Assembly: GCA_964016885.1 (NCBI GenBank)
Contig: OZ024742.1
Location: 46,376,001 to 46,440,000, forward strand
From: Eledone cirrhosa
Lineage: Eukaryota
Reading direction: 5' to 3'
DNA length: 64,000 bases
Shown: in pieces, positions 798-58,677 of the stretch
How the letters are laid out: the number at the start of each line of letters is the position of its first letter
Position numbering within the stretch: position 1 is the first letter of the stretch
The notes under the pieces: generated by a model
What the model saw: only the letters and a program-made list of their open reading frames with translations
What the model was told of the DNA's origin: nothing
The model's database searches: none
Program-made: the position numbers and the translations under genes

Positions 798-872
<75 letters not shown>

Positions 873-885
873 ATATCTATCTATC
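798..885 (+). repeat. (TATC)n microsatellite, 5' anchor of array 1
   Basis: Direct reading. Confidence 0.97.
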
Positions 886-1300
886 TTAATACAACTCACC
901 CCCTTCTTTAAGTAAAACTTCAGAAGTAAGGCGAGAGTAGAGAGAGAGAGGTGCTGCACCTCACTAAATTCACTGTAAGGCTGGTGAATGTGATGAAAAT
1001 GGTCCGAGTGAATGGGCCTTCTCTGTGTATAAACCTGTAGGTTGAAGAAAACAAAAGAGGTAAGACGGGAACACCTACAATACGTGCTCTTGGTGTTGTG
1101 GGTTGTTCTAACTACGTGATGTAAAACAACCCCGCAGTAACGTTCCTCACTATTAGGTATTTCAATTCTTATTTTATTTTAATATGTAGTTTATTTTAAT
1201 TTATTAATGTTAAAGTTTGTACAACTTTTATGTAAAACCCCCGCCGTCACGTCTTGTAACGTCTCATTTCTTGTGCGCCCTTGAAGCAAATAAAGAAACA
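886..1300 (+). mobile_element. Copy F0a: very short 5'-truncated Tx1-like LINE (end of ORF2 plus 3' UTR, divergent subfamily)
   Basis: gagagagaggtgctgcacc...gtgaatgggccttctctgtgtataaacctgTAG (1040) matches the ORF2 C-terminus; ends AATAAAGAAACA, then TATC. Confidence 0.85.
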
Positions 1301-1318
1301 TATCTATCTATCTATCTA

Positions 1319-3302
1319 CGAATTTTACGTAGCAATGCCGGACTTGTTCTCCGGTCTCCTGGAAGCGGTCTACTACAACTGGCAGCAGAACGGGAGAATT
1401 CCCAGTTCTGTTACCAGGGGCGTAATAACACTAGTCAGGAAGGCGGCAGGCTTCGGACCCGTGTTCAGGGGCTGGATTGCTGCAATGCGCAACAGCAACA
1501 TCTGCTCAAGAGTCAAAGTGAACGGCTACCTCTCGGAGCCGTTCCATATCACGCGATCCATTCGACAGGGGTGCCTTCTCTCCTCCCTTCTCTACGCACT
1601 GACTCTCGAGCCTCTACTACGGAAGTTGGAGATATTGCAGGGCATCCCTCTGGAACCGGGACTGCAGAAAGCGGCGTCGGCCTACGCCGACGACGTGACA
1701 GTAATGGTGTCGTGCACCTCGCAAATAGAAGAAGTCGGCACCTTACTGAAGGAATATGAAAGGTTCACAGGAGCGAAGCTGAACCGGGACAAGTCCATCG
1801 GTTTGCAACTCGGATCGTGGAGAGGCAAACCGATGCCTTCCGATGGCGTCGTCGGACGCTGGACGGAAGGACCGGTAAAGCTACTCGGGGTCTGGTTTGG
1901 TCCGGACCTCCAGGTGGAGAAGAACTGGAACGAGGTGACGGCCAAGGTGTTTGCACTCACCCAGAAGTGGGCCGAGAGCAAACTATCCTTGAAAGGTCGA
2001 GCGGAGGTGGCGAACACTTTTATAGCGTCCGTCATCTACTACCGCTTGACCATCGTGCCTTGTCCAGCCAAAACGCTCACCAAAATGAAGCGTGCGCTCT
2101 TCCAATTCCTTTGGAAGAAACGGGCTCCTTTGGTAAGAAAATCCATCTGCTGCCAACACCCTTCAAACGGAGGGCTGGGAATGCCGTGGCTGAAGATGCG
2201 CAAACACGCGCTCAGGCTGCGGCACCTCCACGTATTCTTCACCAGACAACCGGTGTCTGAGGCAACCCGTTCGTGAGGCGAGCCTTCCCACGACTCGTCT
2301 CACTGACGGAGCTGCAGTCCTGGGTCAAGCAAAGACCGAGGAAAATGGGCGACTTGCACATCGAATGTGCTCAGGCGCTCGCAGTCCTCTGGCAAACGGA
2401 CCCGGCGATCAGTGGAGAGTCCACTTCGACATTCTATAGAGGGTCGGTCCGCAGCAAGTGCGACGACACGCTCGGAGAAACTCTAGGCGTAGAGGAGGAC
2501 GAATTGGCCAGTCTGTTCGGTAGGACCTTCCGCCCGGGACCAATGGACAACTTCCAAAAGTCCCTGGCCTGGCAGTGCCACCGAGGAGCTCTACCAGTTC
2601 AAGACAAGCTCTACAAACACGGGCGCCCGGATAGGGATCCTTCGAAAAAGATCTGTCCGAGATGCGTGCGCGACGAGGAAACCGTCTCGCACGCATTTGT
2701 ACAATGCCCGGGCGTTACCGACCTGTGGGGCTATGTAGAACGACTATTGTCGCGGGTGGGACCAATACAGTTGACCACCGAGTCCATTGTCATGATCAAA
2801 CCGCCACCCTCCTTCAAAAACGAGGGAGAGGCGGTTTTCCTATGTGTTATGGCTATGGTGAAAGAGGTTATATGGTGTACGAGGTTAAAAGGGCTGAGGT
2901 CAGACACCTTTCTCTCCGGCGAGCAACTGATTCGTTTTCTCAAATATCATTTTGGAAGAAGAATTAGGATGGAGAGAGAGGTGCTGTACCCCAGCAAATT
3001 TTATAAAAGGTGGGTGAATGTGGCAAAGATGGCCCGAGTGGTTGGGCCTTCTCTCTATATAAGCCTGTAGGTTGAGAAAAAGAGGAAGAGAGGAACGGAG
3101 TACTCACTCTTGGTACTCCTGGAGATGAGGGGTTGTACATGTTTTCGGGGCATGTACAACCACTGTGTAACACCTCCTCCTATTGGGGATATCAATTGTT
3201 ATTTGTTATTTTATTAATAGTTTTATTTTCATATACCTGTATGTAAACTCCCCATTTGTATTTGTCCCCTTCTTTTGTGCCCTTGAGGCTAATAAAGAAA
3301 TT
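1319..3302 (+). mobile_element. Copy A: 5'-truncated Tx1-like LINE (RT plus CCHC, internal deletion at ~1441, frameshift at ~2255)
   Basis: ORFs 1281-2276 and 2273-3070 carry RQG, YADD and CPRC..EET..H..C motifs; TATC on both sides; same subfamily as copy E. Confidence 0.93.
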
Positions 3303-3308
3303 TATCTC

Positions 3309-3372
<64 letters not shown>

Positions 3373-3373
3373 A

Positions 3374-6300
3374 CGTCCCGTTCCCTGCTTTTAGTGGGGG
3401 ATTGGAATGGTATCCTGGATGCACATTGGGACTATGCAGGGGCATGTCCCGATAGAGAGGGGTGCAACAGCCTCAAGGGGTTACTCGGCCGATTTGACCT
3501 GGCCGATAGATTTCGACTAGATTTTCCGACGGTGCCAACCTGGTCTTGGTCAAACCGCAGCGGATCATCTAGGTCGTACCTAGATAAATTTTTAGTTAGA
3601 AATAAGGACAGGGACTTTTTAAGTTGTCCAGAAATGCTCATGGTTGGCTATTCAGACCACAAGTTGGTGACCTGCATGGTCAACCTTGATAGAACGCATA
3701 GACAGGGCCCCGGTTACTGGAAGCTCAACTTGTCCTTGCCGACAAGTAGAGCCTACAGAGATCGGATTAGTACGTTAGTTAAGGAACGATTGACTGGAGC
3801 GATCGTCAACAGCAGGTGGTGGGTATCTCTAAAGAGAGAGATTAGAGTAGTCTCGATAGAATTTAGTAAGGTTCTAGCTGCGGATAGGAATAGGAAGGAA
3901 AGGGAGCTAATAGATAGAGTAGAAGAGGCAATTAGAAGCGGCGACGTGGCCAGAGTGCTAGCGTCGAGAACGGCTTTGAGCCAGTTTTTCGACGCGAAGC
4001 ACGAAGGCTGCGTTGTCCGAAGTAAAATACGTGCTCTAGGGAACGAGGGGACCAAAGCTGTTAGCTGGGCCCGCGTGACAGAGGCCAACAGTGGAACTAA
4101 ATCCACTATCCGGTCTTTGCGAGACCTGGATGGACGGGCGATTCTTGAGCCTAGGCAGATATGTGAGGCCTTTCAAAGGCACTTTGCCCGACTGTTCGGG
4201 AGGGGCGGGGAGCCGGTTGGGAATGTGGACTTCGGTCCATACCGCGACGGCCTGCCGCGTCTCTCGGACAGGGAGGCGAAGTCCTGCGAGGAGCCGATTT
4301 CGGCCGCTGAGATAGAGGACGTTCTGGGCCAATGCGGCAAACGCAAATCCCCGGGTCTCGATGGTCTTCCTTACGAATTATATCTAGCTATGCCGGACTT
4401 GTTCCCCGAGCTCCTCGAGGCGGTCTACTGCAACTGGCGACAGAACGGGAGAATTCCTTGTACTGTGACCAAGGGCGTAGTCACGCTAGTGAGGAAGGAC
4501 GAGAACAAGGGGGACGAAATAAGTAACTTCAGGCCCATAACTCTGCTAAATACAGAGTTACAGATTTTGGCCAAGGTGCTAGCAAAGAGGTTTGCGCTTG
4601 TCGTGGGCAACCTGGTGGGAGATGCGCAGACATACGCTATCCCGTCCAGGTCCATCCATGACAACCTCCACCTCATGCGATACATCATAGAGAGGGTTGG
4701 GAACGAACCCGGCTTTGGTGGGGCTATGATCAACTTGGATCAATCTAAGGCGTTCGATAGGGTCGACCATGGTTATCTGGATGCGGTGCTAGCGGCGGCA
4801 GGCTTCGGACCCGTTTTCAGGGGCTGGATCACTGCTATGCATAGCAGCCGCATCTGCTCTAGGGTCAAGGTGAACGGCTACCTCTCGGAGCCGTTCAAAA
4901 TCGCGCGGTCCATCCGACAAGGGTGCCCTCTCTCCTCCTTTCTGTATGTGTTGACTCTCGAGCCACTACTGCGAAAGTTGGAGTTGTTGCAGGGCATCCC
5001 TTTGGAACCGGGATTGCGGAAAGCGGTGTCGGCCTACGCCGATGACGTGACAGTAATGGTGTCGACGGCCTCCGAAATCGAGGCGGTCGGCACCTTACTG
5101 GAGGAGTACGAAAAGTTCACAGGGGCTAAGCTGAACCGGGACAAGTCGATCGGTTTGCAACTCGGCACGTGGAGGGGCAGACCGATGCCCTCCGATAGCG
5201 TCGTCGGACGCTGGACGGAGGGCCCGGTGAAGTTGCTCGGGGTCTGGTTCGGACCGGACCTCCAGGTGGAGAAAAACTGGGCGGAGGTTACGAACAGGGT
5301 GTTTGCACTGACCCAGAAGTGGGCCAGTTGCAAACTATCCCTGAAAGGTCGGGCGGAGGTGGCGAACACCTACATAGCGTCCGTCATCTACTACCGCCTG
5401 ACCGTAGTGCCCTGCCCAAGGGAAACCCTCACCAAGATGGAGCGCGCGCTCTTCCAATTCCTTTGGAAGAGGCGGGCTCCTATGGTGAGGAGATCCATCT
5501 GCTGTCAACACCCTTCGAAAGGAGGGCTGGGGATGCCGTGGCTAATGATGCGTAAACACGCATTAAGGCTACGGCACCTCTACGTATTCCTCACCGGACA
5601 ACCGGTGTGGGCCTCGTTTGTGAGACGAACCTTTCCCAGACTCGTCTCACTCACCGAGCTGCAATCCTGGGTCAAGCAAAGACCGAGAAAACTGGGCGCC
5701 TGGCACACTGAGTGTGCCCAGGCGCTCAACGCCCTCTGGCAGGCGGATCCGGTTATCAGTGGAGACTCCACCGCAACATTCTATAGAGGGCAGGTACGCA
5801 GCAGGTGCGACTACGCCCTCGGAGAAGCCCTAGACATGGAGGAGGACGAACTGGCCAGCCTGTTCGGTAGGACATTCAGCCCAGGACCTATGGACAACTT
5901 CCAGAAGTCCCTGGCCTGGCAGTGCTACCGAGGGGCTCTACCCGTTCGAGAAAAGGTCTACAGACACGGGCACCCGGGTAGGGACCCCGCCAAAAAGATC
6001 TGTCCCAGATGCGTGTGCGACGAGGAAACCGTTGCACACGCATTGGTACACTGCTCGGGCGTGGCCGATCTGTGGGGCTATGTCGAACAACTGCTGTCAA
6101 GGGTGGGACCGATCCGGTTGACCACGGAGTCTATTGTAATAATCAAGCCGCCTCCCCCCTTCAAAGATGAAGGAGAGGCGGTGTTTCTGTGCGTAATAGC
6201 CATGGTGAAAGAAGTTGTATGGTGGACGCGTCTGAAAGGACTGAGGTCAGGCACCTTTCTCTCTGGCCAACAACTGGTCCGTTTCTTCCGATATCATTTC

Positions 6301-6681
6301 GGAAGACGGATCAGGATGGAGAGAGAGGTGCTCCACCCCAGTCGTTTTTATGAAAGGTGGGTGAAAGTGGCGAGAATGGCCCGTGTGAATGGGCCTTCTC
6401 TTTACATAAGCCTGTAGGTGGAAAAGAGGAAGGAACGAGGGAGCACCCCCTCTCTGTGCTCCTGAGGAAAAGGGTTGCACACTTTTTTCGGGGGTGTGTG
6501 TGACCCCCCAAGGCGCCTCCTCTCTATTGAGGATTTTGTTATAAATTTTATTTTTTGTTATATCTTATTTTATTTTTATATTTTGTTATTGCCTCCTCCT
6601 TATTGAGGACACCTTTTTGTGTAAACTCCCCCCTTTGTACTTTTCCCACTTTTGATGCCCTAGTGGCAAATAAAAGAAACA
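3374..6681 (+). mobile_element. Copy B: Tx1-like LINE truncated within the endonuclease; remaining ORF2 open to 6417
   Basis: ORF 3256-6417 (its first ~39 aa are UTR/TATC artefact) has GDWN, YLD, SDH, KSPGLDG, KAFDRV, RQGCPLS, YADD and CCHC; 23-bp TSD at 3351-3373 / 6682-6704. Confidence 0.95.
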
Positions 6682-6924
6682 TATCTATCTATCTATCTAT
6701 CTAATCTCTGGGATGGACACACGCGTATAACTTGCTGAGTAAGTTCTGTTTAATTTTCTATAGAAATTCTTGTCTGTTAACTTTAATTTTTGTACCATTT
6801 TGTAGAGGGACTGCCAGGTCAAACTTTGATCTGGTCAGTCTCTCAAAATATTCTACGCCTTTAGGCGAAATAGTTAAACCAAAAAAAAAGTTTTTTCTTG
6901 TTGAAAAGTCAATATTTTTTTTAA

Positions 6925-8714
6925 ATGGCCGAAGCCTCTTCACCAAAATTCGAAGGAGGAAAGGGGAAGATAAACTTACAGCTTCCCCCTACCACTGTCA
7001 CAGTAGCAGAGGTCAAGAAGAAAGGTCAGCCAGAGGAAGAATTCTCTCCACCTGTTTACCGACAACTTGACGTTGCCATGGCAACAACCCGAAGAACCAG
7101 CGGCACCAGCAACAGCAACAACAACAACAATGCGACGGACGAAAACAACACCAATAACAATAACAACAACAACAAGACCAATAACGGTGACAACAACAAC
7201 AATGATAACAACAACACCACCAACGACAACAACACAAACAAACAAAATTTCTCCTTCGCCGAGACGACAAGGAAAACCCTCGACTATCTGCCAGTAGATA
7301 TAACCAAAGCGAAGGAGCTACTGGCAGTTGCGAAAAAATATATAGTGTACGGAGAAAATGGTTCATTCACAATCCATTCCTCTCCGGAACTAAAAAGCCA
7401 GAGACTCCTAAACACGGTCATGTTTAGGACAATCTCGAACAAAAGTAAAAAGCCAGCTCAACCATCACAGAGTGAGATAGAGCTGGTTTTAAAAGACGTC
7501 ATGAAGGACATCACCTTCATTCAGAAGGATAGACTCTACGGGAGTCTATCCATTCTCATGAAGGACAGGGACACAGCAGTGAAACTGTCCATCAAACCAA
7601 TCACATCCACCGCATACACCTTCTACCCTACGTACATGGGTAGAAGAACACAAAAAATAAAAATCCACACCATCCTGCCGATTATGGACATATGGTGGGT
7701 TTTGACAGGTTTCCTGGACCTGGAGGATGACATGCTGGTGTCCATGGGAAAGGCATCGGGTGACGCGTTCAGTGGAACGAGCCTCGAACTTGTAGTTCAA
7801 ATGAGGCCCGAAAGGATCGCCCAGATCCCTGAACGCGTCATACTGGATGATCTATCCTTCATCAACATTACCGTTGAGGGTAGACGGCCCTCGTGTTACC
7901 ACTGCGGAACCAGAGGTCACCTGAGGGCTGTCTGTCCCCAACTTAATAAGAAAACCCCAATCCTGCCTACACCACCAACAACTGCACAACCAACACAATC
8001 ACCACAACTACCACTACAAAAACAACCACCACAGCTCAAACCAAAACAAAACAATGTCCAACCCATCCCCTCCACTCAAAAAACAAAAACAATTTCCAAA
8101 ACACTCGCACCGCAAACACAACCCGAAAATATACCCCTCCCCTCCAACGCGGAAGATGACCCTAGTTCGTCGTCAGACGAGGAGGAGCACTTCCACACAA
8201 TCAAAATAAAAAAAAGAAAACACACCTCAGACACACAAATGAAAACAACCCCTCCCCAAAACATGACACTGACACCAACACGAAAGAGCTCACAACAACA
8301 GCAAACAAAAAACACCACACAAAAACAAAAACATGCATACACATACATAAACACAAGAAACAAAAAACTGTTAAACATTGTGTACAACAACAATCTAATA
8401 AAAACACAAGGGCCTAACTTCACCCAGGCAGGGGATTTCCCCCACCTCAAAATGATTAAGGCCCCACAGGACACCTATAAAACTTTAAAAAACAATTTTA
8501 AAGAGGACGTGGGTCCCCCCTGCGTCGGGTCCATTAACCGCGTCCTCCTAAAAAACTACCCCACCCCCTCCCCAAATACCTACACAACTCCAAGCTCCCC
8601 AACCACACAACACACTGATGCCCCTACACTTCCACAAACCACCACCCCACCCAACAACCCACCCCCACCCTAATGGAAATTGTGCAGCCCGATACCCGGG
8701 ACGCAGAGAGGTAA
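6925..8714 (+). CDS. ORF1p of copy C (Asn-rich N-terminus, CCHC knuckle, P/T/Q-rich linker; small frameshifting deletion at ~8660)
   Basis: CYHCGTRGHLRAVC; the true end ...RDAER-TAA (8712-8714) is inferred by comparison with ORF 47712-48047. Confidence 0.85.
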
Positions 8715-8738
8715 GTGCCTTTTCTCTTCACCACCAAC

Positions 8739-11700
8739 ATGGCTATGCTAAGAGTAGGCTGTTTAAATGCGCGTGGCCTGGGCTCAACTTGGAAGCAAGC
8801 AATGCTTCTAAATGACCTCAGGTCACAACGTACAGATGTGATGGTTATTTGCGAGGCCCGGATCAGCAACGTGCGACAGCTGGCCCCCACCTTTGATGAC
8901 TTTGAGATGCACGCATCTCTCTGTCAGCCCGGAGGTGGGGGGTGGAGTTGTCGTTCTGCTGCAAAAACATCTGGGTCTCGCAACACAGATGGTACATTTG
9001 GACCCGGAGGGTCGACTAGTGGTTCTGGACCTTGGCAGTGGTAAAGGCGGAGCGTTTAGGTTGGTAGCCGCCTACGGCCCTTTCGGGTCAATGCGGCCGG
9101 ACTTCTTCCATCGTCTGGAGACTTTTCTAGGGACGTCCCGCTCCTTGCTATTAGTAGGGGACTGGAATGGTATCCTAGATGCACGCTGGGACTACGTAGG
9201 GGCTTGCCCCGATAGAGAGGGGTGTAATAGCCTCAAAGGGTTAATCGGTCGATTTGACCTGGCCGATAGATATCGACTAGATTTTCCGACTGCGCCAACC
9301 TGGACTTGGGCAAATCGTAGCGGATCATCTAGGTCGTACCTAGATAGGTTCTTAGTTAGAATTAAGGATAAGGACTTTTTAAGTTGTCCAAAAATGCGCA
9401 TGGTTGGCTATTCAGACCACAAATTAGTGACCTGCATGGTCAACCTTGACAGAACTCATAGACAGGGACCCGGTTACTGGAAGCTCAACTTGTCCTTACC
9501 GGCAAGTAAGGCTTACAGGAACCGGATTAGCACTTTAGTTAAGGAGCGGTTGACGGGCGCCATCGTCAACAGCAGGTGGTGGGGATCTCTCAAAAGAGAG
9601 ATTAGAGTAGTCTCTATAGAATTTAGTAAGGAGTTAGCCTCAAATAGAAATAGGAAGGAAAGGGAGTTGGTAGATAGTGTAGAAGAGGCAATTAGAAGCG
9701 GCGACGTGGCCAGAGTGCTAGCGTCGAGAACGGCCCTGGGCCAGTTCTTCGACGCGAAACACGAAGGCTGCATCGTCCGAAGCAAAATACGTGCTCTGGG
9801 AAACGAGGGGACCAAAGCTGTTAGCTGGGCCCGCGTGACAGAAACCAAAAGAGGGTGCAGATCCACTATCCGGTCTTTGCGAGACCAGGATGGACGGGTG
9901 ATCCTTGAACCTAAGCAGATGTGCGAGGCTTTTCAAAAGCACTTTGCCGGATTGTTCGGAAGGGGCGGGGGGCCGGTTGGGGACGTGGACATCGGTCCAT
10001 ACCTCGACGGCCTGCCGCGTCTCTCGGACAGGGAGGCGAAGTCCTGCGAGGAGCCGATTTCAGCCGCTGAGATAGAGGACGTGCTGAGCCAATGCGGCAA
10101 ACGCAAATCTCCGGGTCTCGATGGTCTTCCATACGAACTATATCTAGCTATGCCGGACTTGTTCCCCGAACTCCTCGAGGCGGTCTACTGCAACTGGCAA
10201 CAGAACGGGAGAATTCCCTGTGCTGTGACCAAGGGCGTAGTCACGCTAGTGAGGAAGGACGAGAACAAGGGGGACGATATAAATAATTTCAGGCCCATAA
10301 CTCTGCTAAATACAGAGTTACAGATTTTGGCCAAGGTGCTAGCAAAGAGGTTGGCGCTTGTCGTGGGCAACCTGGTGGGAGATGCGCAGACATGTGCTAT
10401 CCCGTCCAGGTCCATCCACGATAACCTCCACCTCATGCGATACATCATAGAGAGGGTTGGGAACGAACCCGGCTTTGGTGGGGCCCTGATCAACTTGGAT
10501 CAATCTAAGGCATTCGATAGGGTCGACCATGGTTACCTGGATGCGGTGCTAGCGGCGGCAGGCTTCGGACCCGTTTTCAGGGGCTGGATCAATGCCTTGC
10601 ACAGCAGCCGCATCTGCACTAGGGTCAAGGTGAACGGCTACCTCTCGGAGCCGTTCGAAATCGCGCGGTCCATCCGACAGGGGTGCCCTCTCTCCTCCCT
10701 TCTGTATGTAATGACTCTAGAGCCACTGCTGCGGAAGTTGGAGTTGTTGCAGGGCATCTCGTTGGAACCGGGATTGCGGAAAGCGGTGTCGGCCTACGCC
10801 GATGACGTAACAGTAATGGTGTCGACGGCCTCGGAAATCAGGGCGATCGGCACCTTACTGTAGGAGTACGAAAGGTTTACAGGGGCTAAGCTGAACCGGG
10901 ACAAGTCGATCGGTCTGCAACTCGGCACGTGGAGGGGCAGATCGATGCCCTCCGATGGCGTCGTCGGGCGCTGGACGGAGGGCCCGGTGAAGTTGCTCGG
11001 GGTCTGGTTCGGACCAGACCTCCAGGTGGAGAAGAACTGGGGTGAGGTGACGAACAGGGTGTTTGCACTGACCCAGAAGTGGGCCGAGTGCAAACTGTCC
11101 CTGAAAGGACGGGCGGAGGTGGCGAACACTTATATAGCGTCCGTCATCTACTACCGCCTGACCGTTGTGCCTTGCCCAAGAGAAACGCTCGCCAAAATGG
11201 AGCGCGCACTCTTCCAATTCCTTTGGAAGAAGCGGGCTCCTATGGTGAGGAGATCCATCTGCTGTCAACACCCTTCGAAAGGAGGGCTGGGGATGCCGTG
11301 GCTAATGATACGTAAACACGCATTAAGGCTACGGCACCTTCAGGTATTCCTCTCCGGTCAACCGGTGTGGGCCCCGTTTGTGAGGCGAGCCTTTCCCAGA
11401 CTCGTCTCACTCACCGAGCTGCAATCCTGGGTCAAGCAAAGACCGAGAAAACTGGGCGCCTGGCACACTGAGTGTGCCCAGGCACTCACGGCTCTCTGGC
11501 AGGCGGACCCGGCTGTCAGTGGAGAATCCACCTCGTCATTCTATAGAGGGCTGGTGGTTAGCAGGTGCGACGATGCCCTCGGAGAAGCCCTAGGCATGGA
11601 GGAAGACGAACTGGCCAACCTGTTCGGTAGGACATTCAGCCCGTGACCCATGGATAACTTCCAGAGGTCCCTGGCCTGGCAATGCTACAGAAGGGCTCTG

Positions 11701-12177
11701 CCCGTTCGAGAAAGGCTCTACAGACACGGGCGCCCGGGTAGGGACCCATCGAAAAAGATCTGTCCCAGATGCGTGTGCGACGAGGAAACCGTTGCACACG
11801 CATTGGTACACTGCTCGGGCATTGCCGATCTGTGGGGTTATGTCGAACAACTGCTGTCAAGGGTGGGACCAATCCGGTTGACCACCGAGTCTATTGTAAC
11901 GATCAAGCCGCCTCCCCTCTTCAAAAACGAAGGAGAGGCGGTGTTTCTGTGCGTAATAGCCATGGCGAAAGAGGTTGTATGGTGGACGCGTCTGAAAGGA
12001 CTGAGGTCAGACACCTTTCTCTCTGGCCAACAACTGGTCCGTTTCTTCCGATATCATTTCGGAAGAAGGATCAGGATGGAGAGAGAGGTGCTGCACCCCA
12101 GCCGTTTCTATGAAAGATGGGTGAAAGTGGCGAGAATGGCCAGTGTGAATGGGCCTTCACTCTACATCAGACTATAG
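8739..12177 (+). pseudogene. ORF2 (APE-RT-CCHC) of copy C, disrupted
   Basis: Extra G in the run at ~8935-8942; in-frame stops at 10861 (TAG) and 11644 (TGA). Confidence 0.92.
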
Positions 12178-12441
12178 GTGAGGAAGATGAAAGACCAAGG
12201 GAGCACCCCTTCTCTGTGCTCCTGAGGAGAAGGGTTGCACACTTTTTTCGGGGGTGTGTGCGACCCCCCAAGGCGCCTCCTCTCTATTGAGGACTTTGTT
12301 ATAAATTTTATTTTTTGTTATATTTTATTTTATTTTTATATATTGTTATTGCCTCCTCCTTATTGAGGACGCCTTGTTTTGTAAACTCCCCCCATTGTAC
12401 TTGTCCCACTTTTGATGCCCTGGTGGCAAATAAAAGAAACA

Positions 12442-12492
<51 letters not shown>

Positions 12493-12493
12493 A

Positions 12494-12565
<72 letters not shown>

Positions 12566-15500
12566 AAATCTAGCTGTCGTCTGTTCTACAGTGTGGATGT
12601 CATTCACTTCGCACAGAAGTTTTGTTCAAATTTATTGAGGAAATCTTGTGAGTTCAAACTTAATTTTGATACAATTGTGTAGCTTGACCCTCCGTCTGAA
12701 CTGTCAGGCGGTGGGTCAGCTCATCTTTACCCCTCCTAGAGGTGAAAAACCTGTTTTAAAAAATTTTGTGTAAAAAAATTTCAATCGTCTAACAGAAATG
12801 TTAAACGCAGCGAACGAAAATAGTGGTGGGGGGACAGCGGTAAGAGTTGTAAGCTCGCACGCTTTAGTCCCCCCTTCCTTCCCAACTAACGTCATAGAGA
12901 AGGAAGGAAAAATTAAAATAAAAACAGACGAATCTGCGGAGAAAAAAAAAAATGACGAAAACACAAATCTGGACATGGATTCCAACAACGAAAAAAAAAG
13001 TGAAGGAGAGAATGGTATTTTATCGGTAAAAATGCCTCAAGAATTCACGAAAGACATTGAAAGCCGAACGGTCAAGTTTCGGACCATCAACAACAGTACA
13101 AAAAAACCTGAACAGCCTTCTCAAGCAAATATCAAAACAGTACTCACAGAAGTACTTAATGAAACCACTTTCATAAGAAAAGACAGACTGTATGGAAGCC
13201 TAGCAATTATCATGAAGAACGAATCGGCGGCAAAAAAAATGTGCTTTGTCACCGATTCGTTCGAAAAATTTCACCTTTTATCCATCTTATATGGGGAAAA
13301 GAACTCAACGCATATGGCTGGATGCAATGATGCCAGATGTGGACTACTGCTGGCTCATAGCTGGCTTCATCGATCCAGTGAATGACAACGTGATTTCCAT
13401 TGGGAAAACCACAGGAAATGCGTTCAGTGGAACAGGTATAGAGCTGGTAGTGCAAATGAAGCCTGAACGCATCGCCCAAATACCCGACAGAATCCTATTA
13501 GAGGACCACGGGTATATAAACATTAGCGTGGAGGGGAGAAGGCCGTCCTGCCATATCTGTGCAGGAAGAGGGCACCTGAAGGCCGCTTGTCCCCAACTCA
13601 ACAAAAAGAAAACCCTGCTACCAACACCAGCTCCACCACCACCACCACAACAGATAAACAAACAACAAAACTCAGTCCCACCCAACCCGTCCCTCAGTAA
13701 AACCACAACACCACCACAACACAAACAGTCACAACACATTACCCCAAAACAAAATACAGGCCCACCCAACCTCTCACTCAATAAAACAACACAACCACCG
13801 CAGACGCAACACACAACACAGTCTAACATAGTGACATCCATCTCCCCCACAAAGAAAACCAACACGGAAACATTACCAGCAAACATACCTCTTCCCTCCA
13901 ACACTGAAGATAACCCAACGAATTCGGAGGAAGAAACGGAGTCCTTCAGACAGATTAAAAGGAAAAAAAGAAAACATGTGCAAAACACACAAGGACAAAC
14001 AACCCCCACCCAAATCTCAACACAATCCAACAAAACAGAAAACACCCCTCCAGCAACAAACAAAACCAAACCTGCCCCTCCCCTCTTCGAAACACTCACA
14101 CCATCGGAAAAAAAGACATTACACTATACTTACATCAACAGAAACAATAATAAATTAAATGAACTCATATACAATAATCCTTCGGTACAAACCGAAGGTG
14201 TAAACTTTGTTTCGTCAGAAAACTACCCACATTTAAAATTAATAAAGATCCCAATGAACCTCTACCAAAAACTAAAAAAGGATTTTAAGGAGGACGTAGG
14301 ACCACCCTCTGTCAAACCCATAAACCGCGTCCTACTAAAAAGCTTTCCCCCTCCCCTTCCCCTCCCCAACACAACTCCAAACACCCCAACCCCACCACAC
14401 ACTGACGACCCCACACCACCACAAGACACCCCTTCACCCAACACCCCCGACCCCATGGAAGTCGTGCAACCCGAACCCCGGGAAGCGGAAAGGTAGGTCT
14501 CTACACTCTCCTTTGGCTCTGCCGCCCACATGGATGTGTTAAGAGTAGGATGTTTGAAAGCACGTGGCCTGGGCTCAACTTGGAAGCAAGCAAAGCTTCT
14601 AAATGACCTCAGGTCATGTAGTATAAATGTAATGGTTATCTGTGAGACTCGAATCAGCGTCGTGCGGCAGCTGGCCCCCACCTTCGATGACTTTGAGGTG
14701 CATGCATCTCTCTGTCAACCTGGAGGTGTGGGTGTGGTTGTCGTACTGCTGCAAAAACACCTGGGTCTTGCCGTACAGGTTGTGCACTCGGACCCGGAGG
14801 GTCGTTTGTTGGTGCTAGACGTTGGCAGTAGTGAAAGTGCGGCCTTGAGACTGGTCGCCGTCTACTCCCCTTTCGGAGCTGAACGGCCCGACTTCTTCCA
14901 GCGTTTGGAGACTTTTCTGGGAACGTCGCGTTCCCTGCTTCTAGCGGGGGATTGGAATGACATCCTGGATGCACGTTGGGACTATGCAGGAGCATGTCCT
15001 AATAGAGTGGGTGTAACAGCCTCAATGGGTTACTCGACCGTTTTAACTTGGTCGATAGATATCGACTAGATTTTCCAACTGTGCCTACCTGGACTTGGAG
15101 AAACCACAGTGGTCAATCTAGATCGTACTTAGATAGATTCTTAGTTAGAAGTAAGGATAGGGACATATTAAGCTGTCCAGAAATGCGCCTGGTTGGCTAC
15201 ACGGATCACAAATTAGTGACCTGCGTGGTCAATCTCGAGAAAACACATAGACAGGGTCCCGGTTACTGGAAACTTAATTTGTCTTTACCGGCAAAAGAGA
15301 CTTACAGAAACCGGATTAGCAGATTAGTTAAGGAGAGGTTGACGGGTGCAATCGTCAACAACCGATTGTGGGCATCTCTCAAAAGAGAGATTAGAACAGA
15401 ATCAATAAGTTATAGCAAGATGTTAGCTGCCGATAGGAATAGAAACGAGAAAGAATCAACAGGTAAATTAGAAGAGGCAATCAAGAGCGAAGATGTGGCC

Positions 15501-18179
15501 AGAGTGCTGGCATCGAGGACGGCCTTGAACCAGTTTTTCGATGCAAAGCACGAAGGCTGCGTCATTCGAAGTAAAATACGTGCTCTAGGTAATGAGGGCG
15601 CCAAAGCCGTTGGATGGGCCCGCGTGACAGAAGTTAAGAGTGGAAATCGATCCATCATCCGGTCGTTGCAAGACGAAGATGGACGGGTGATCCGGGAGCC
15701 TAAGCAGATGTGCGAGGCCTTTCAAAGGCACTTTGCCCGATTGTTCGGGGGAGGCGAGGGTCCGGGCGGGGGCGTGGATTTCGGTCCATACCTCGACGGC
15801 CTGCCGCGTCTCTCGAGCGAAGAGGCAGAGTCCTGCGAGGGACCAATCTCGGCTGATGAGATCGGAGATGCGCTGAGCCAATGCAGCAGACGCAAATCTC
15901 CAGGTCTCGATGGTATACCTTACGAACTTTATTTAGCAATGCCGGTCTTCTTCTCCGAACTCCTCGAAGCGGTCTACTGCAATTGGCAGCAGAACGGGAG
16001 AATTCCTTGTTCTGTAGCCAAGGGCGTAGTCACGCTGGTGAGGAAGGACGAGAACAAGGGGGATAGTATAAATAATTTTCGGCCCATAACCCTGCTAAAC
16101 ACAGAGTTAAAGATTTTGGCCAAGGTGTTAGCAAAGAGGTTGGCGCTTGTCGTGGGTGGCCTGGTGGGAGATGCGCAGACATGTGCTATCCCATCCAGGT
16201 CCATTCACGATAACCTCCACATCATGCGATACATCATAGAGAGGGTTGGCAACAAACCCGGCTTCGGTGGGGCCCTGATCAACTTAGATCAGTCTAAGGC
16301 CTTCGATAGGGTCGACCATGGTTACCTGGATGCGGTGCTAGCGGCGGCTGGGTTCGGTCCTGTTTTCAGAGGCTGGATCACTGCCCTACATAAGGAACCA
16401 CATCTGTTCTAGGATCAAAGTGAACGGCTACCTTTCGAAGCCGTTCGAAATCACACGATCCATTCGACAGGGGTGCCCTCTCTCCTCCCTTCTGTACGTA
16501 TTGACTCTCGAGCCTTTACTGAGGAAGTTGGAGTTGTTGCAGGGTATCCCCCTGGAACAAGGATTGAGCAAAGCGGTCGGCCTACGCCGATGGCGTAACA
16601 GTAATGGTATCGACCGACTCGGAGATCGAGGCGATCGGTACCTTACTGGAGGAGTACGAAAGGTTGTCAGGAGCGAAACAGAACCGGGAAAAATCCATCG
16701 GGCTGCAACTCGGAACGTGGAGAGGCAGACCGATGCCTCCTGACGGTGTCGTCGGACACTGGACGGAGGGCCCGGTAAAGTTGCTTGGGGTCTGGTTTGG
16801 ACCGGACCTCCAGGTGGAAAAGAACTGGAACGAGGTTACGAACAAGGTGTTTGCACTAACCCAGAAATGGGCCAAGTGTAAGCTGTCCCTAAAAGGCCGG
16901 GCGGAGGTGGCGAACATTTACATAGCGTCCGTCACTTACTACCGCCTGACTGTCGTGCCTTGCCCTAAGGAAACACTCACCACCATGGAACGCATGCTCT
17001 TCCAATTTCTTTGGAAGAAGCGCCCTCCTATGGTGAGAAGATCCATCTGCTGCCAACAACCTTCGAAGGGAGGGCTGGGGATGCCGTGGTTGATGATGCG
17101 TAGGCACGCATTAAGGCTACGGCACCTACAGGTATTCCTCACTGGTCAACCGGTGTGGGCTCCGTTCGTGAAACGAGCCTTTCCGAGACTCGTCTCGCTC
17201 ACCGAGCTACAGTCCTGGGTCAAGAAAAGATCCGGAAAACTGAGAGACTGGCACACTGAGTGTGCTCAGGCGCTCAGGGCTCTCTGGCAAGCGGGCCAGG
17301 CCATCGGTGGAGAATCCACCTCATCATTCTATAGAGGGCTGGTGGCTAGCAGGGGCGATGACACCCTTGGAGAGTCGCTGGACATGGAAGAAGACGAACT
17401 GGCCAGCCTGTTCGGTAGGACTTTTGGCCCAGGACCAATGGACAACTTCCAGAAGCCACTGGCCTGGCAGTGCTACCGGGGGGCTCTACCCGTTCGAGAG
17501 AGGCTCTACAGACACGGGCGCCCGGGCAGGGATCCCTCAAAAAAGATTTTCCCTAGATGCGTGCGTCACGAAGAAACCGTTGCGCACGCATCGGTGCAAT
17601 GTCCGGGCGTGGCTGATCTGTGGGGCTACGCCGAACGACTGCTGTCGCGGGTGGCGCCGATTAAATTGACCGCCGAGTCCGTGATGACAATCAAACCGCC
17701 TCCCCTCTTCACAAAGGAAGCAAAGGCGGTCTTTCTGTGCGTAATAGCCATGTTGAAAGAGGTTGTTTGGTGGACACGATTGAAAGGTCTGAGGTCAGGC
17801 AACTTCCTCTCTGGCCATAGTCTGGTCTACTTCTTCCGATATCACTTCGGAAGAAGGATAAGAATGGAGAGAGAGGTGCTTGGCCACAGGCAGTTTTATG
17901 AAAGGTGGGTGATAGTGGCGAGAATGGCTCGTGTAAATGGGCCTTCTCTGTATACCATCCTGTAGGTAAAGAAGTAAAGGAGAGGGGAGCACCTTCTCCA
18001 TGTGCTCCCCGGGCAAAGGATTGCACACTTTTTCGGGGGTGTGTGCAACCCCCATCACGTCCCCTCCCTTTTGAGGTTATTTTCGATTATTTTCATGTTA
18101 CACCCTTTTTACTCGATTATATGTAAACTCCCCCTTTGTATTTGTCCCTTCTTTTTATGCCTTTATGGTAAATAAAGAA

Positions 18180-18180
<1 letters not shown>
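12566..18180 (+). mobile_element. Copy D1: near-full-length Tx1-like LINE, subfamily D, multiple frameshifts
   Basis: ORF1 pieces 12798-13385 and 13246-14496 (CHICAGRGHLKAAC; ~190-nt deletion at ~13000 relative to D2); ORF2 pieces 14530-17965; ends AATAAAGAAA, then TATC. Confidence 0.95.
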
Positions 18181-18214
<34 letters not shown>

Positions 18215-23500: not shown

Positions 23501-23751
23501 GGAACATTTATAAAAAAAAAATTGTACTTACTTGGCAACGTGCGGAAGGAGACCTTTGAATTTAACTCACACAAGGCTTTGATGATAACCTACACGAACA
23601 TTCGTTACCTTTCTTGGTGAATAGGATTTTTATATTCGAAATATCCCGATCATTAAATATTTTGAAAGTAACAATTCAATAACTTTGTTCTTATATCTAA
23701 TTGTATTTATTACTACATTGCTGTATCCAATAAACATGCTGCATTATATTC

Positions 23752-24486
23752 ATGCATAATATATATATCCTACTCCCCCCTAAAACTAACCATAATAACA
23801 GGAAAAGGAAGATTATTTGGTTCACACCCCCCTTCTCTCTAACTGTCAAAACTAATGTAGGAGGGAAATTCCTTGAACTATTAGACAAACATTTTCCTCC
23901 TATTCATAGATATTATAAGATTTTTAATAGGAATGTAGTTAAGATCAGCTACTCTTGTTGCCCATCCATGAAGTCCAAAATCACCAGTTCAAACCGTACG
24001 AGGATAAATCCAGGATGCAGTTGCAGGAAGCCGGATGAATGCCCATTGCAGGGTAAATGTAACACAAAATCTGTCGTTTATGAGGCTAAGATAACGCCAG
24101 TTATCAACAACCAGCCAGCCAGGAGTGAGCGATATGTCGGTATGACCCAGGACAGGTTTAAAACCAGATTTTACTCACATGTCGCTTCTTTTAAGCACTC
24201 TGATAAACGAACATCAACGGCCCTCGCAAGTAAGGTATGGGATCTCAAGGATAGTAATATCCCGTACTCTATTGATTGGTCTATATTAGACCATTCGAGG
24301 GAGTACCAAAGGGGCACAAAGAATTGTTCTTTGTGCACCACAGAAAAGTATAGGATTTTGCTAAACTTGAGAGCCACTTCCGCTTGCCTTAACTCAAAGA
24401 CTGAGATCTTCAGATGCTGTCCTCATCTGAAATCGCATCTGATCTGTAACTGGATTGACACTCCTATGAGAAATCAACCGCCTTGA
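23752..24486 (+). CDS. 5'-truncated Penelope-like element ORF (RT C-terminus, Cys linker, GIY-YIG endonuclease)
   Basis: RKRKIIWFTPPFS, CSCRKPDECPLQGKC, SVVYEA..YVGMT..FKTRFYSH, CSLCTTEK, LNSKTE..CPH. Confidence 0.9.
   Translation: MHNIYILLPPKTNHNNRKRKIIWFTPPFSLTVKTNVGGKFLELLDKHFPPIHRYYKIFNRNVVKISYSCCPSMKSKITSSNRTRINPGCSCRKPDECPLQGKCNTKSVVYEAKITPVINNQPARSERYVGMTQDRFKTRFYSHVASFKHSDKRTSTALASKVWDLKDSNIPYSIDWSILDHSREYQRGTKNCSLCTTEKYRILLNLRATSACLNSKTEIFRCCPHLKSHLICNWIDTPMRNQPP

Positions 24487-27468: not shown

Positions 27469-27548
<80 letters not shown>
27469..27548 (+). repeat. (TATC)n, 5' flank of copy G
   Basis: Direct reading; a matching tract lies 3' at 33339-33416. Confidence 0.97.
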
Positions 27549-27549
<1 letters not shown>

Positions 27550-30500
27550 CTTTACGATGGACACATGTGCTGAGCTCGCTCGGTAAGTTTTTGTTTAAAT
27601 TCATACGAAAATTGTAAACTGTAAACTTTCATTTTTGTACCATTTTGTAGAGGGACTGCCAGGTCAAATTTTGATCTGGTCGGTCTCTCAAAATATTCTG
27701 CGCCTTTGGGCGAAATAGTATTGTGAACATTTTATCTTTCGAAAAACTTCAAAAAACCCTATTTTGAGAAAAATGGCTGAAGCATCTTCACCATCAATCA
27801 AAGAAGGAAAGGGGAAGTCATACTCACAGCTTCCCCCTGCCACTGTCACAGCAGCAGATGCCAAAGGCAGAGGTCAGAGAGAGGAAGAATTGTCTTCACC
27901 TGTTGACCGACCACTAGATGTAGCCACAACTACACAAGAATTTGAAAACAACAACAACAACAACAGCAACAATAAAGACAACAAAAACAACAACAACACA
28001 AACGTCACAAGTACCCACACACCAAACGAGAAAGACAACAACAACAACAAAGATGAAAACAACTCAAACGACGAGAAACAAAACAATACTAAAATCCAAA
28101 GCGAAAACAAAATATCTTTTGCACAAACGGCTAAATTATCAGTCGCTTATGTGCTGGAAGATATTTCAAAAGCAAAAGAAATGCTGGAAAAAGCCAAGAA
28201 ATATGTATCTTTTGGCGAAAACGGTTCGTTTTCTATACATTCACCTCCAGAACTAAAAAGACAGACGGAATTACGAACTGTCGTATTCCGAACAATTTTA
28301 AATAAAACAAAAAAACCAGCGCAACCATCTCAAGCGGAAATTCAGTTAGTCTTGAAAGACGCGATGAGAGATATCACTTTTATACAAAAGGATAAACTCT
28401 ATGGGAGTTTATCCATATTGATGAAAGACGAATTGGCGGCGAAAAAATACTCTGTGTCGCCAATTCGGTCCACACACTACACCTTCTTCCCCACCTACAT
28501 GGGTAAAAAACCCCAGAGGATATGGATAACCACCATCACCCCAAACATAAACTACTGGTGGTTACTAACCGGTTTCCTCAATTTAGACGAGGACAACCTC
28601 ATTTCAATAGGGAAGGCATCCGGCGACGCGTTCAGTGGAACGAACATCGAAGTTCTGACCCAAATAAGGCCAGAACGCAACGCCCAAATCCCTGAGCGCG
28701 TCATGCTGGATGACCGTACCCACCTCAACATTATTGTGGGGGGTAGGCGTCCCTCCTGTTACCTCTGTGGCAATAGAGGTCACCTGAGGGCTGCCTGTCC
28801 CCAGCTCACACAGAAAAAACACTGCTACCAACACCACCCCAACTACAACAACAAAAACAACCACAACAACAACAACAACAAAAACCAACAACGCCACCAC
28901 CACCACCACCACAACAACAACAACAACAAACACGTGAAAAAATAACACAGAATACTGTCCCACCCAATCCCCCCCTACCCAAAACAAATACAAAAACACA
29001 CACACCGCAAACACTACCAGAAAACATACCCCTCCCACCCAACAAGGAAGACGAACCCCTTTCGTCGCAAGACGAAAAAGATCCCTTCCAACAAGTAAAA
29101 AGAAAGAAGAGGAGACGCACCACAGACACACATGTTAACTTTAACCCCCCCCCCAAGAGAACACAAACTACACACAAACCACCCCTCCCTGTCACACAAC
29201 ACTAACTGCTACACAAAAAAAGACCTTACAATACACATACATGAACACAGACAACAAAGAATTACGGAAAACAATTTCAGCGAACCCTTCGGTCCAAACT
29301 GAAGGGCCAAACTTTATAACTGCTGTGGGACTACCTCATTTAAAAATGATAAAAGTCCCAATGCACTTGTACAAAACACTGCAAATAAATTTCACGGAGG
29401 ACGTGGGCTCCCCCCTGCGCCAAACCAATCAACCGCGTCCTCCTAAAAAATTTCACCCCCCACCCCACCCAGACACCCACTCAACCACAAACACCCCAAC
29501 CCCACAACACACTGATGCCCCTTCACTTCCACAAACCACCACCCCACCCAACAACCCATCCCCAACCAGCATGGAAATTGAGCGGCCCGTTTCCCGGGAC
29601 GCAGAGAGGTAAGTGCCTTTTCTCTTTACCACCAACATGGCTGTGCTAAGAGTAGGGTGTCTAAATGCGCGTGGCCTGGGCTCGTCTTGGAAGCAAGCAA
29701 TGCTTCTAAATGACCTCATGTCACAATCTATAAATGTGATGGTTATCTGCAAGGCCCGGATCAGCAGCATGCGACAGCTAGCCCCCACCTTTGACGACTT
29801 TGAGATGCACGCATCTCTCTGTCAGCCCGGAGGTGGGGGTGGGGTTGTCGTTCTGCTGCAAAAACATATGGGCCTTGCAACACAGATAGTTCACTTGGAC
29901 CCAGGGGGTCGACTGGTGGTGCTGGACCTTGGCAGCGGTGAAGGTAGAGCCTTTAGGCTAATAGCCGCATATGCCCCTTTTGGGACAGAGCGGCCCGACT
30001 TTTTCCAGCGTCTGGAGTCTTTTCTAGGGACGTCCCGTTCCATGCTTTTAGTGGGGTATTGGAATGGTATCCTGGATGCACGTTGGGACTATGCAGGGGC
30101 ATGTCCCGATAGAGAGGGGTGCAACAGCCTCAAGGGGTTACTCGGCCGATTTGACCTGGCCGATAGATTTCGACTAGATTTTCCGACGGTGCCAACCTGG
30201 TCTTGGTCAAATCGCAGCGGATCATCTAGGTCGTACCTAGATAGATTTTTAGTTAGAAATAAGGACAGGGACTTTTTAAGTTGTCCAGAAATGCTCATGG
30301 TTGGCTATTCAGACCACAAGTTGGTGACCTGCATGGTCAACCTTGATAGAACGCATAGACAGGGCCCCGGTTACTGGAAGCTCAACTTGTCCTTGCCGGC
30401 AAGTAGAGCCTACAGGAATCGGATTAGTACGTTAGTTAAAGAACGGTTGACTGGAGCGATCGTCAACAGCAGGTGGTGGGTATCTCTAAAGAGAGAGATT

Positions 30501-33338: not shown

Positions 33339-33456
<118 letters not shown>

Positions 33457-34433: not shown

Positions 34434-34824
34434 CTAATAAATACAGTGTTGAGTATAAGCTCCACAAAAACCTAGTCACACGAACAATCAGAATAAAGAA
34501 AGGGAGATTGGAGATGGCGAACAAACAGGTGCATGGTGGGGTTGTTAAGCATCTCTGCTAAATGCCAGGGTATAAGCGGATTCAACAAGATGAAGATATA
34601 ATAGATGGCACACAAAAACAAAGAATGTAAAAGCAAAAAATGCAAAAGCATAAAAATACATAAAAAATACAGACAAAGGTTAAAACATAATATAAATTAT
34701 AATAAAGTAATAAAAAATAAAAAATATAAAAATATTATAGATAATAAAATAAAATAAAATAAAATAAAATAAAGTAAAATAATTAAAAAAATTAATAAAA
34801 TATAATGAAAAATAATAAAATAAT

Positions 34825-35012
34825 TGTTTCTACTTTTGGCACAAGGCCAGCAATTATCCCAGTGTATTACTGGTACTTTATTTTATCGACCCCTTAAGGA
34901 TGAAAGGCAAAGTTAACCTCGGCGGGTTTTGAACTCAGTACGTAAAGGGACGTAACTGTGCTGCAAAGCATGGCGTCCGACCCTCTACCGATACTGCCAA
35001 TCCACCGCCCTT
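34825..35012 (-). mobile_element. tRNA-derived SINE (resembles octopus SINEs)
   Basis: Minus strand: A-box-like TGGCAGTATCGG, B-box-like GAGTTCAAAAC, body gactttgcctttcatcc-like..ggggtcgataaaataaagtaccag; the family assignment is from memory. Confidence 0.8.
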
Positions 35013-36079
35013 ATTAAATAAGATAATAAAATAATATAATAATATATAAAAATTATATAATATTATATGTAATATATAAAATTAAAAAGAATTAAAAAGA
35101 TTTAAAAAATTAAAAAATAAAAAAATAAAAAAATTAAGAAATTAAAAAAGTAAATAAATAAAAAAAAAAAATTTTCATTAAAAAATAAAAATAAAAAATA
35201 AAAAAAAAATTTTTCCTAAGAGAAATTCTTTAAAAAAGAAATAAATGCAGAAAGAAGAAAAAAGTTATAAGTTATAAATACATAGAGAAGCCAAAAGAGT
35301 ACAAGCGCTGGTCCCTAGTAACACGAGTGAGTAGGATCTCGGTAACATATATAAGCGTTAAGAGGTCTTTTTGGTACATCCCGAAAGACCACAGTAATCC
35401 GAATCACCACCATGATACATATACACAAGGTGTACTGGTAGGTACCCGAACTAGGTAGCCAGTGGGTGCTCACAAACATATAGGAAGGTATCACAAAAGC
35501 ACAAGCCTTACACAAGTAAAATATGGTTATTATATGGTAGGGCTGAGTAAAACAAGTAAATAGACAGTCACGGCATAAAAACAAGCTATGCACAAGCAGA
35601 TCGGGGTTATTGTGCTGAAGCAATCTTATTATATTAGTTGCTGTAAAACAACCGGCAAAGTTATTACTCATGCATATTAGCAACACAGGATATATATATA
35701 TAGAGAGAGAGAGCGAGAGAGAGAAAGACATATTCTACACGTTTCCTAATACTGCTTTCTTCTTCTTCAATGCTTTAATTGTTCAACTGAAAACTTATTA
35801 CGATAAAAATCTATATAAACTGTTGCCTAAACAATTATTTGTCTGCTTTCTTCTTTTTCTTTGTTTTTAAATTCTTTTTTCTTTGTTTTTTCTTTGTTTT
35901 TTTAGTCTTCTCTTCGTGTTTTGTCTTCTTTCTTTTCTGCTTTTGATTTTTTTGTTATTTTCTTACCCCCCCCCCCCTCTTTCCCTATCTCTCTCACTCA
36001 CTCTTCTTCTATCTGTTTCACTCTTTCACACCCTCTTTTACAATATCTATGCATTTCTTCTCTTTCTCTGCTCCTCACT

Positions 36080-47552: not shown

Positions 47553-47701
<149 letters not shown>

Positions 47702-47713
47702 TAATCTAGCTGT

Positions 47714-51757: not shown

Positions 51758-51768
51758 TATCTATCTAT

Positions 51769-57515: not shown

Positions 57516-57603
<88 letters not shown>

Positions 57604-57604
<1 letters not shown>

Positions 57605-58582: not shown

Positions 58583-58583
58583 T

Positions 58584-58677
<94 letters not shown>

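Follow-up and report, generated by a model that had tools for sequence, protein, structure and literature searches.

Within a 64,000-nucleotide stretch of the Eledone cirrhosa genome (assembly GCA_964016885.1, contig OZ024742.1, positions 46,376,001 to 46,440,000, forward strand; hereafter the window), eleven copies of an L1/Tx1-type long interspersed nuclear element (LINE) lie on the plus strand, five at 886-18182, one at 27549-33338 and five at 47702-64000. All of their visible 5' and 3' junctions touch the tetranucleotide TATC, which raises the question whether TATC is the target of this element or a sequence that the element makes itself, and how such a preference could be set and changed. 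We consider it probable that these copies belong to a likely active L1/Tx1-type clade that inserts in register at C/TATCT (the slash marks the insertion point) with a bias to TATC repeats, probably by nicking the GATA strand and pairing it with target sequence at the end of the element RNA.

The preference is seen in the flanks of copies throughout the 3.0 Gb genome. A degenerate pattern of the element 3' end gave 20,992 matches, and the reversed pattern, used as a control, gave 0. Of these ends, 16,258 continue with two arbitrary nucleotides and TATC, compared to about 88 expected by chance; as the pattern also catches sister families, the share among the TATC families themselves must be at least the 77% that results. 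With a shorter 3' pattern, 9,230 ends followed by at least three TATC units were found. We further inspected 170 copies from four subfamilies, which were best-scoring hits per query and not random draws; three loci of the H subfamily with non-canonical 3' ends (L100, L113 and L115) were removed before counting. The 3' flank starts with TATC in 153 and with TAT in 163 of the 170 copies; 17 copies have no downstream TATC unit, 47 have a single one, 36 have two and 70 at least three. In 200 kb of arbitrarily chosen genome, runs of at least three TATC units cover 0.028% and runs of at least six TA units 3.8%, and 1,649 of the 1,675 TATC sites start single-unit runs. Since single-unit sites dominate this background while flanks of at least three units are common among the copies, TATC arrays are strongly preferred but not required, and one C/TATCT suffices. 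The strict (TATC)n specificity proposed in a first-pass annotation of the window, made by a model from the letters alone, therefore does not hold, given the 47 copies with a single downstream unit and the 17 with none. The roughly 10% of sampled copies off TATC lie mostly in TA-rich DNA, and their insertion sites keep a TA-x-x-T shape. The youngest subfamily (D) shows the same TATC bias (36/40).

The 5' side was informative in 137 copies with both flanks, the other 33 having no usable 5' flank. TATC lies within 28 nt upstream of 67 of the 80 truncated copies whose 5' flank could be used (background 10.7%), and GATA upstream of one; TATC confined to the 3' end, the pattern that the first-pass annotation had named as speaking for a tail, was thus not what we found. 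Sixty-nine of the 137 copies lie in periodic sequence in which a duplication is unresolvable. From the 68 non-periodic loci, we picked by hand 31 target-site duplications with a unique anchor, which have a median length of 16 bp (range 4-24 bp), start with TATC in 29 cases and with TATA in 2, and are preceded by C in 24. At 18 of the 31, the four nucleotides upstream are not TATC and no additional unit is present on the 3' side. An empty paralogue (L054) has the target site once, the filled locus (L166) twice; no empty allele of another locus, L109, was found among the contig matches listed. Because TATC lies upstream of 67 of the 80 truncated copies, starts the duplications and is held once by the empty paralogue, it is the target and not a tail made by the element, as the first-pass annotation had proposed together with strand-specific insertion. 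Six loci (L321 and, by their 5' flanks, L063, L232, L236, L237 and L252) landed in a TA/TATC tract that ends one common host repeat, and sequence related to this repeat lies right of window position 18316.

Within the window, copies and junctions were called by self-BLAST and junction reading, which recovered the same set of eleven same-strand copies (5 + 1 + 5) that had been annotated, including TATC at each visible junction, with a single unit before the copy at 63808. Every complete 3' end reads AATAAA(A)GAAA, two nucleotides and TATC, without poly(A). Motif, adjoining TATC and missing A-tail had been described correctly, but the dinucleotide, given as CA or TT, is more varied: TA and TC occur as well within the window, and GA, CT and TG in other parts of the genome. 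Thirteen of the 14 window tracts of at least three TATC units adjoin a family copy. The TA, CA, GA and TTC tracts had been noted to be free of copies, and this extends to all seven non-TATC tract types (0/39: TA 0/18, CA/TG 0/9, GA 0/4, TTC 0/2, TTA 0/2, TATG 0/3, GATA 0/1). One copy (G1), annotated as truncated at 47714, instead begins at 47702 with a D-type 5' tip of about 13 nt, after which the sequence switches to C-type ORF1 (first open reading frame); because it starts with a D-subfamily 5' end and is a C/H mosaic, the 47702 junction is no independent evidence. A twelfth relative, a relic at 44205-45898 that the first-pass annotation lacked, shares 86% identity with a sister family associated with (ATT)n. 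The features, all on the plus strand, are as follows.

798-885, +: (TATC)n tract heading array 1
886-1300, +: copy A, 3' untranslated region (UTR) fragment of an older subfamily
1301-1318, +: TATC spacer
1319-3302, +: copy B, B/I subfamily, 5'-truncated in the reverse transcriptase (RT), with an internal deletion of about 295 bp near 1443
3303-3372, +: TATC spacer
3373-6681, +: copy E, 5' truncation within the endonuclease, 98% identical to H
6682-6703, +: TATC spacer
6704-12441, +: copy C, full length; ORF1 open at 6925-8673 (582 aa), ORF2 with stops
12442-12565, +: TATC spacer of 31 units
12566-18182, +: copy D, full-length 5' end, ORFs broken, ORF1 deletion of about 212 bp; youngest sampled subfamily
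18183-18214, +: TATC tract at the close of array 1
27469-27548, +: TATC tract 5' of the solo copy H
27549-33338, +: copy H, solo, full length; ORF2 open at 29637-33074 (1,145 aa: apurinic/apyrimidinic-type (APE) endonuclease, RT, zf-RVT), ORF1 frameshifted
33339-33414, +: TATC tract 3' of H
44205-45898, +: relic of the (ATT)n-associated sister family, rearranged and partly inverted, with no TATC junction and no 3' end
47555-47701, +: TATC tract heading array 2
47702-51757, +: copy G1, mosaic of a D-type 5' tip, C-type ORF1 end and endonuclease, and H-type RT
51770-57517, +: copy G2, D type, full length, behind a two-unit TATC spacer; ORF1 open, ORF2 broken
57518-57603, +: TATC spacer
57604-58584, +: copy J, 5'-truncated C-type fragment, 96% identical to C
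58585-58676, +: TATC spacer
58677-63803, +: copy I, C-like 5' UTR and B-type body with deletions, ORFs broken
63808-64000, +: copy K, A-type 3' fragment behind a single TATC; ends in TATC 42 nt past the window, followed by another copy

The second array thus goes on past the end of the window, where a further, nearly full-length copy follows that is TATC-terminated too. Head-to-tail arrays, already recognised in the window, are also common among the sampled copies, 38 of 137 having the 3' end of another copy within 150 nt upstream. Since these copies follow another one and the array neighbours in the window are subfamilies 72-98% identical to each other, the arrays are the product of serial insertion into TATC beside older copies. 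Of ten sampled TATC tracts of at least ten units, seven adjoin family sequence, one of them in the opposite orientation. Family sequence beside an opposite-oriented TATC tract was seen at L273 (C1:5362007) and L418, probably reflecting inversions or nested insertions. A separate (TC)n family suggested by L304/L418 was dropped, as it comprised one copy with an A-type end and no TC upstream.

To which class does the element belong? ORF2 of copy H matched the RVT_1 and zf-RVT domains and aligned with human L1 ORF2p over residues 8-857, spanning endonuclease and RT, with an E-value of 6e-46 compared to 7e-19 for R2; L1 and R2 were the only solved-structure references in the RT comparison. The nearest Atlas clusters combine Exo_endo_phos, RVT_1 and zf-RVT. 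Hallmarks of target-primed reverse transcription (TPRT) are present in the form of the 80 5'-truncated copies and the 31 duplications of 4-24 bp. Judged from these features, the family is an L1-superfamily (L1/Tx1) LINE with an APE-type endonuclease, in line with the first-pass annotation of a LINE with an AP endonuclease. Elements of the Tx1 clade carry an ORF1 with RNA recognition motifs (RRMs) and a CCHC knuckle and not one of the vertebrate-L1 type. The ORF1 core of copy C is predicted to contain tandem RRMs and one CCHC knuckle (predicted local distance difference test score 84); the model matches tandem-RRM proteins at an E-value of 2e-5 with low TM-scores. A weak zf-CCHC match was obtained in 8 of 16 ORF1s, and none matched the vertebrate L1 ORF1 family. 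A target preference of the Tx1 type has been defined as more than 20% of flanks (PMC4494074), compared to 16,258 of 20,992 ends here. Target preference and ORF1 are consistent with a possible membership of the Tx1 clade.

Protein and Atlas searches returned no named Tx1 protein. The closest named relatives are proteins of Argonauta hians (62-69%) and cuttlefish (46-52%), which by themselves would already suggest an octopod host, and relatives from other cephalopods were found at 40-53%. An RT tree, the rows of which included neither named Tx1 sequences nor human L1, placed the family with the Argonauta and cuttlefish proteins, with unnamed fish and turtle LINEs further out, and apart from plant L1. 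A metagenome scan gave distant relatives only (24-43%), none of which had AATAAA followed by a microsatellite.

Several co-existing subfamilies had been postulated, and this is supported; array neighbours in the window belong to subfamilies of 72-98% identity. At least three more full-length subfamilies (L004/L022/L030/L131; L290; L121/L205) have distinct 5' UTRs that all start after TATC, with ORF1s 41-60% identical to that of copy C. The D subfamily is likely still active, as suggested by D-type hits identical over 281 bp (all 40 scored), by both ORFs being open in 10 of 23 long D copies, with all catalytic motifs scanned present in 9 of these 10, and by a ratio of nonsynonymous to synonymous substitutions (dN/dS) between subfamilies of 0.13-0.24. 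Copy H, which had been recommended as the source of a recombinant endonuclease, is ill-suited because it carries K and Y where intact copies have conserved E and D. Both substitutions hit catalytic positions, which correspond to E43 and D145 of L1. For D145, a catalytic role in the L1 endonuclease is documented (PMC1950540).

Members of the clade use other targets as well, a point absent from the first-pass annotation. A sister family, S, has 332 exact 3' ends genome-wide, and in all 100 ends listed the next bases are two arbitrary nucleotides and AC. Of 32 fetched copies, 31 continue with ACTCT in one phase of a 72-bp tandem repeat and 30 have their 5' end at one unit phase, joining about 65 nt into the unit; the sole plainly truncated copy has a 9-bp duplication. 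That full-length S copies might have a duplication of 65 bp was considered and rejected, since only 15 of 91 right-flank variants reappeared in the last unit on the left. The 72-bp repeat has 36,789 exact 30-mer matches, many far from any S copy, and its arrays beside S copies vary in length and carry local variants. It sits inside a TTAA-flanked element whose inverted ends are mutual reverse complements beginning with CCC; at 20 S loci, the left end was seen in 11, the right in 11 and both in 5. From the TTAA flanks and terminal inverted repeats, we judge the host of S to be a piggyBac-like miniature inverted-repeat transposable element (MITE). As Rfam gave no match in three S loci, the repeat does not appear to be a known RNA gene. 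A D copy (L251) lies at a chance TATC within the left end of the same MITE, which shows a possible route into it. S copies are nearly all full length (30/32; L411-L480), in contrast to the TATC families, for which sampling was by 3' end. Six of them stand head to tail with a spacing of about 5.8 kb in one MITE repeat array (C1:4222500-4260345, L411-L414); similar stacks occur on C10, and among the S copies listed, those on C1-C3 are concentrated towards the ends of the contigs.

An additional group with about 70% DNA identity is associated with (ATT)n. After the dinucleotide, 28 of 30 copies continue with ATTAT, and 8 of 11 truncated copies have ATT on their upstream side; three of the 20 background stretches (200 kb) hold a copy of this group. 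The ATT tracts that host copies often lie within other abundant short repeats, possibly short interspersed nuclear elements (L416, L420, L428, L440). With the ATT group as root, trees of the last 1.2 kb of ORF2 and of the endonuclease both place S within the TATC families (support 96/96 and 85/91, respectively), which makes TATC probably the ancestral and the MITE site the derived target. Approximately unbiased (AU) tests, chosen after the tree had been seen, reject monophyly of the TATC copies with p-values of 0.02 and 0.03; two duplicated rows were removed between the ORF2 tree and its AU test. The S trees of endonuclease and C-terminal region are discordant, which together with the mosaics at 47702-51757 and 58677-63803 suggests that subfamilies often recombine or that template switching between them is common. 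By these sequence relationships, the clade has changed targets, using TATC, one phase of a 72-bp MITE repeat and (ATT)n within one genome, which is the new aspect here.

What was kept in the change to the MITE? The sites TATCTAT and ACTCTAT have TCTAT in common at +3 to +7. Compared to H, C and D, the ORF2 of S is 76-78% identical in the endonuclease and 85-89% in the RT, the endonucleases of H, C and D being 80-88% identical among each other. The endonuclease hairpin between two conserved anchor residues, which in L1 probes the target DNA (PMC1950540), is identical in S and B-type TATC copies, and dN/dS of the S endonuclease is not raised (0.22-0.24 vs 0.20).

These observations can be joined into a mechanism modelled on TPRT of L1 (PMC7617806). 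The endonuclease would nick the bottom strand at 5'-AGATA/G-3', the freed 3'-OH would prime reverse transcription, and a second nick would follow on the top strand about 16 nt downstream. The junctions suggest that the RNA reads past AATAAA into flanking target sequence and pairs with the primer, so that an A-tail would not be copied, and that full-length RNA has its start in target-like sequence, between a few and about 25 nt upstream, so as to aid the 5' join. Full-length H copies (L109, L072, L114 and L120) carry 6-25 extra TATC-like bases after the resolved duplication, and head variants recur among full-length copies. The switch of S would likely have needed few residues and a new RNA flank, with the TCTAT core and the hairpin kept. 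A further-reaching version, which we regard as possible but rather doubtful, is that of a self-reprogramming LINE, in which a permissive endonuclease reads the TCTAT core, copies of the target at both RNA ends pick the site and one off-target insertion can found a new specificity; the clade would also be a main builder of long GATA tracts in this genome. The move of a TATC lineage into the MITE with an unchanged recognition hairpin could serve as an example.

The account of in-register insertion aided by RNA pairing competes with the view that the endonuclease, alone or together with other ORF2 domains, reads the whole site, that RNA flanks are irrelevant and that the S and ATT switches were amino-acid changes. 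We think this unlikely, although several points speak for it. The Tx1L endonuclease nicks nearly solely its own site in vitro (PMC1950540), the S endonuclease is further from those of H, C and D than these are from each other and has private residues near the active site, and the 18 duplications in non-TATC context lack an added tail unit. It fits poorly with the shared hairpin and the dN/dS of the S endonuclease, with the target-like bases upstream of full-length copies beyond the duplication, and with the joining of full-length S copies about 65 nt into the unit when the truncated one shows 9 nt. Some of our data also weigh against the pairing account itself. Added 3' TATC units, a trace that pairing after read-through might leave, may be present in no more than three or four old copies (L207, L187, L198 and L178); 13 of the 80 truncated copies have no upstream TATC and 13 of the 68 non-periodic loci no duplication; and the TATC partners of S differ between the two trees. 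As the S endonuclease has about 20 private residues, one of them (G to W) in the loop after a conserved tyrosine, protein change alone could explain the S switch. The last 25 nt upstream of S copies are nearly variant-free (5/550 vs 251/5,200, a comparison set that may include terminal units), which fits a head carried on the RNA and a protein preference for perfect units equally well.

The remaining alternatives concern the nature of the flanks. That TATC is a tail or head made by a loosely inserting element, with arrays formed by recombination or tandem duplication, is by now largely refuted and very improbable. Full-length copies do have TATC-like heads, there are mosaic copies such as G1 and tandem pairs that hardly differ (L237/L260), and the element may have lengthened the seven of ten long tracts that adjoin it; yet duplications in unique DNA begin at TATC on both sides, the empty paralogue has TATC once, 67 of 80 truncated copies, unable to bear a head, have it upstream, and array neighbours of 72-98% identity are not expected from duplication. 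Hardly any weight can be given to passive accumulation, in which copies insert unspecifically and survive when they land in repeats, as suggested for Waldo-A/B near CA repeats (PMC3812793). The 10% of copies off TATC, mostly in TA-rich DNA, would suit it, but phase and strand are fixed, TA and CA tracts cover 30-130 times more of the sampled DNA and are seldom used, and the youngest subfamily is equally biased. For S, the repeat might be a captured flank that travels with the element and not an independent host repeat, in keeping with the same upstream unit end in 30 of 32 copies and with head-to-tail arrays in this family too. We regard this as highly unlikely in view of 36,789 repeat matches, many of them remote from S, against 332 S ends, and of arrays that differ in length, carry local variants and end in TTAA-flanked inverted repeats.

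Other features of the window lie outside the family. An unrelated LINE at 37666-40908 on the minus strand, between TTA and TTC tracts, has RT and zf-RVT in several broken frames; no APE domain was detected in it, and we presume that it may be of the restriction-like-endonuclease type. A 250-aa frame at 23734-24486 (plus strand) gave no Pfam match at an E-value of 0.01 and resembles, in our estimation, the C-terminal GIY-YIG part of a Penelope-like element. Low-complexity, very AT-rich stretches at 300-420 and 34600-35250 contain no family copy.

Most work on changes of target in APE-type LINEs has so far relied on grafts between proteins that are only very distantly related. Families with ORF2s 76-89% identical, some open ORFs and three targets in one genome make the question of protein versus RNA directly testable; about 20 endonuclease residues and two RNA flanks form a shortlist for swaps, which bears on the retargeting of retrotransposons. 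For cephalopod genomics, the results account for the arrays and for the family itself, which numbers at least 16,000 copies. They also carry the warning that GATA microsatellite markers in these animals often coincide with retrotransposon junctions, as 7 of the 10 sampled long tracts do. An octopus repeat annotation lists 13 young and 80 total L1-Tx1 families (PMC13282606), and neither its text nor its supplement mentions TATC, GATA or target (for the text, target site). Extracts of PMC12988792 and PMC10294476 contain nothing on LINE targets. The literature searched, which did not extend to Repbase, Dfam, the founding paper of 2004 or the bulk of subscription journals, contained no TATC- or GATA-specific LINE, and a database entry with GATA specificity may exist. 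Further work on target-specific LINEs was compared as well (PMC8869645, PMC3747384, PMC5753468).

Among known systems, Kibi (TC)n and Koshi (TTC)n of teleosts and the crocodilian Tx1-1_Crp group, (TTCC)n/(TTTC)n, are likewise APE-type LINEs that prefer a microsatellite (PMC4494074, PMC3812793), and by this analogy they are the closest working counterparts of the TATC families. In Eledone cirrhosa the unit is TATC/GATA, a single motif is enough and the host is an octopod; relative to the 20% of flanks used in PMC4494074, the present family lies far above, with at least 77%. The units TC, TTC, TTCC and TTTC of that lineage are not those found here (TATC, ATT and the 72-bp repeat), and only one (TC)n-flanked copy (L304/L418) was seen. 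The S family resembles Xenopus Tx1L, which occupies a fixed site in Tx1D, a non-autonomous piggyBac-like element, and the crocodilian Tx1-Mar and Tx1-9_AMi, which also reside in DNA transposons (PMC4494074). It differs in nesting within a microsatellite-targeting clade at 76-89% ORF2 identity, and for this reason its switch is recent and probably independent. Human L1 ORF2p, the best solved-structure match, shares staggered nicks that lead to a similar duplication length and pairing of primer and RNA at initiation (PMC7617806). Unlike L1, the present family has no poly(A) at the junction, another target and an ORF1 with predicted tandem RRMs and a CCHC knuckle.

Waldo, Mino, Dong, Togen and SART1 belong to other clades (R1, R4, NeSL-related). 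They are also repeat-specific, inserting into (ACAY)n, (AC)n, (TAA)n, (TG)n and (TTAGG)n, respectively (PMC3812793, PMC4640811, PMC7265360). Dong thus has its unit in common with the ATT sister group, and for SART1 it has been proposed that RNA resembling the repeat anneals to the nicked strand. None of the five is reported on GATA in the extracts of these papers. Set beside these systems, TATC alone is one more unit for a known microsatellite habit, and the added value of the clade lies in its compactness and likely activity, its three targets and a recent switch between them.

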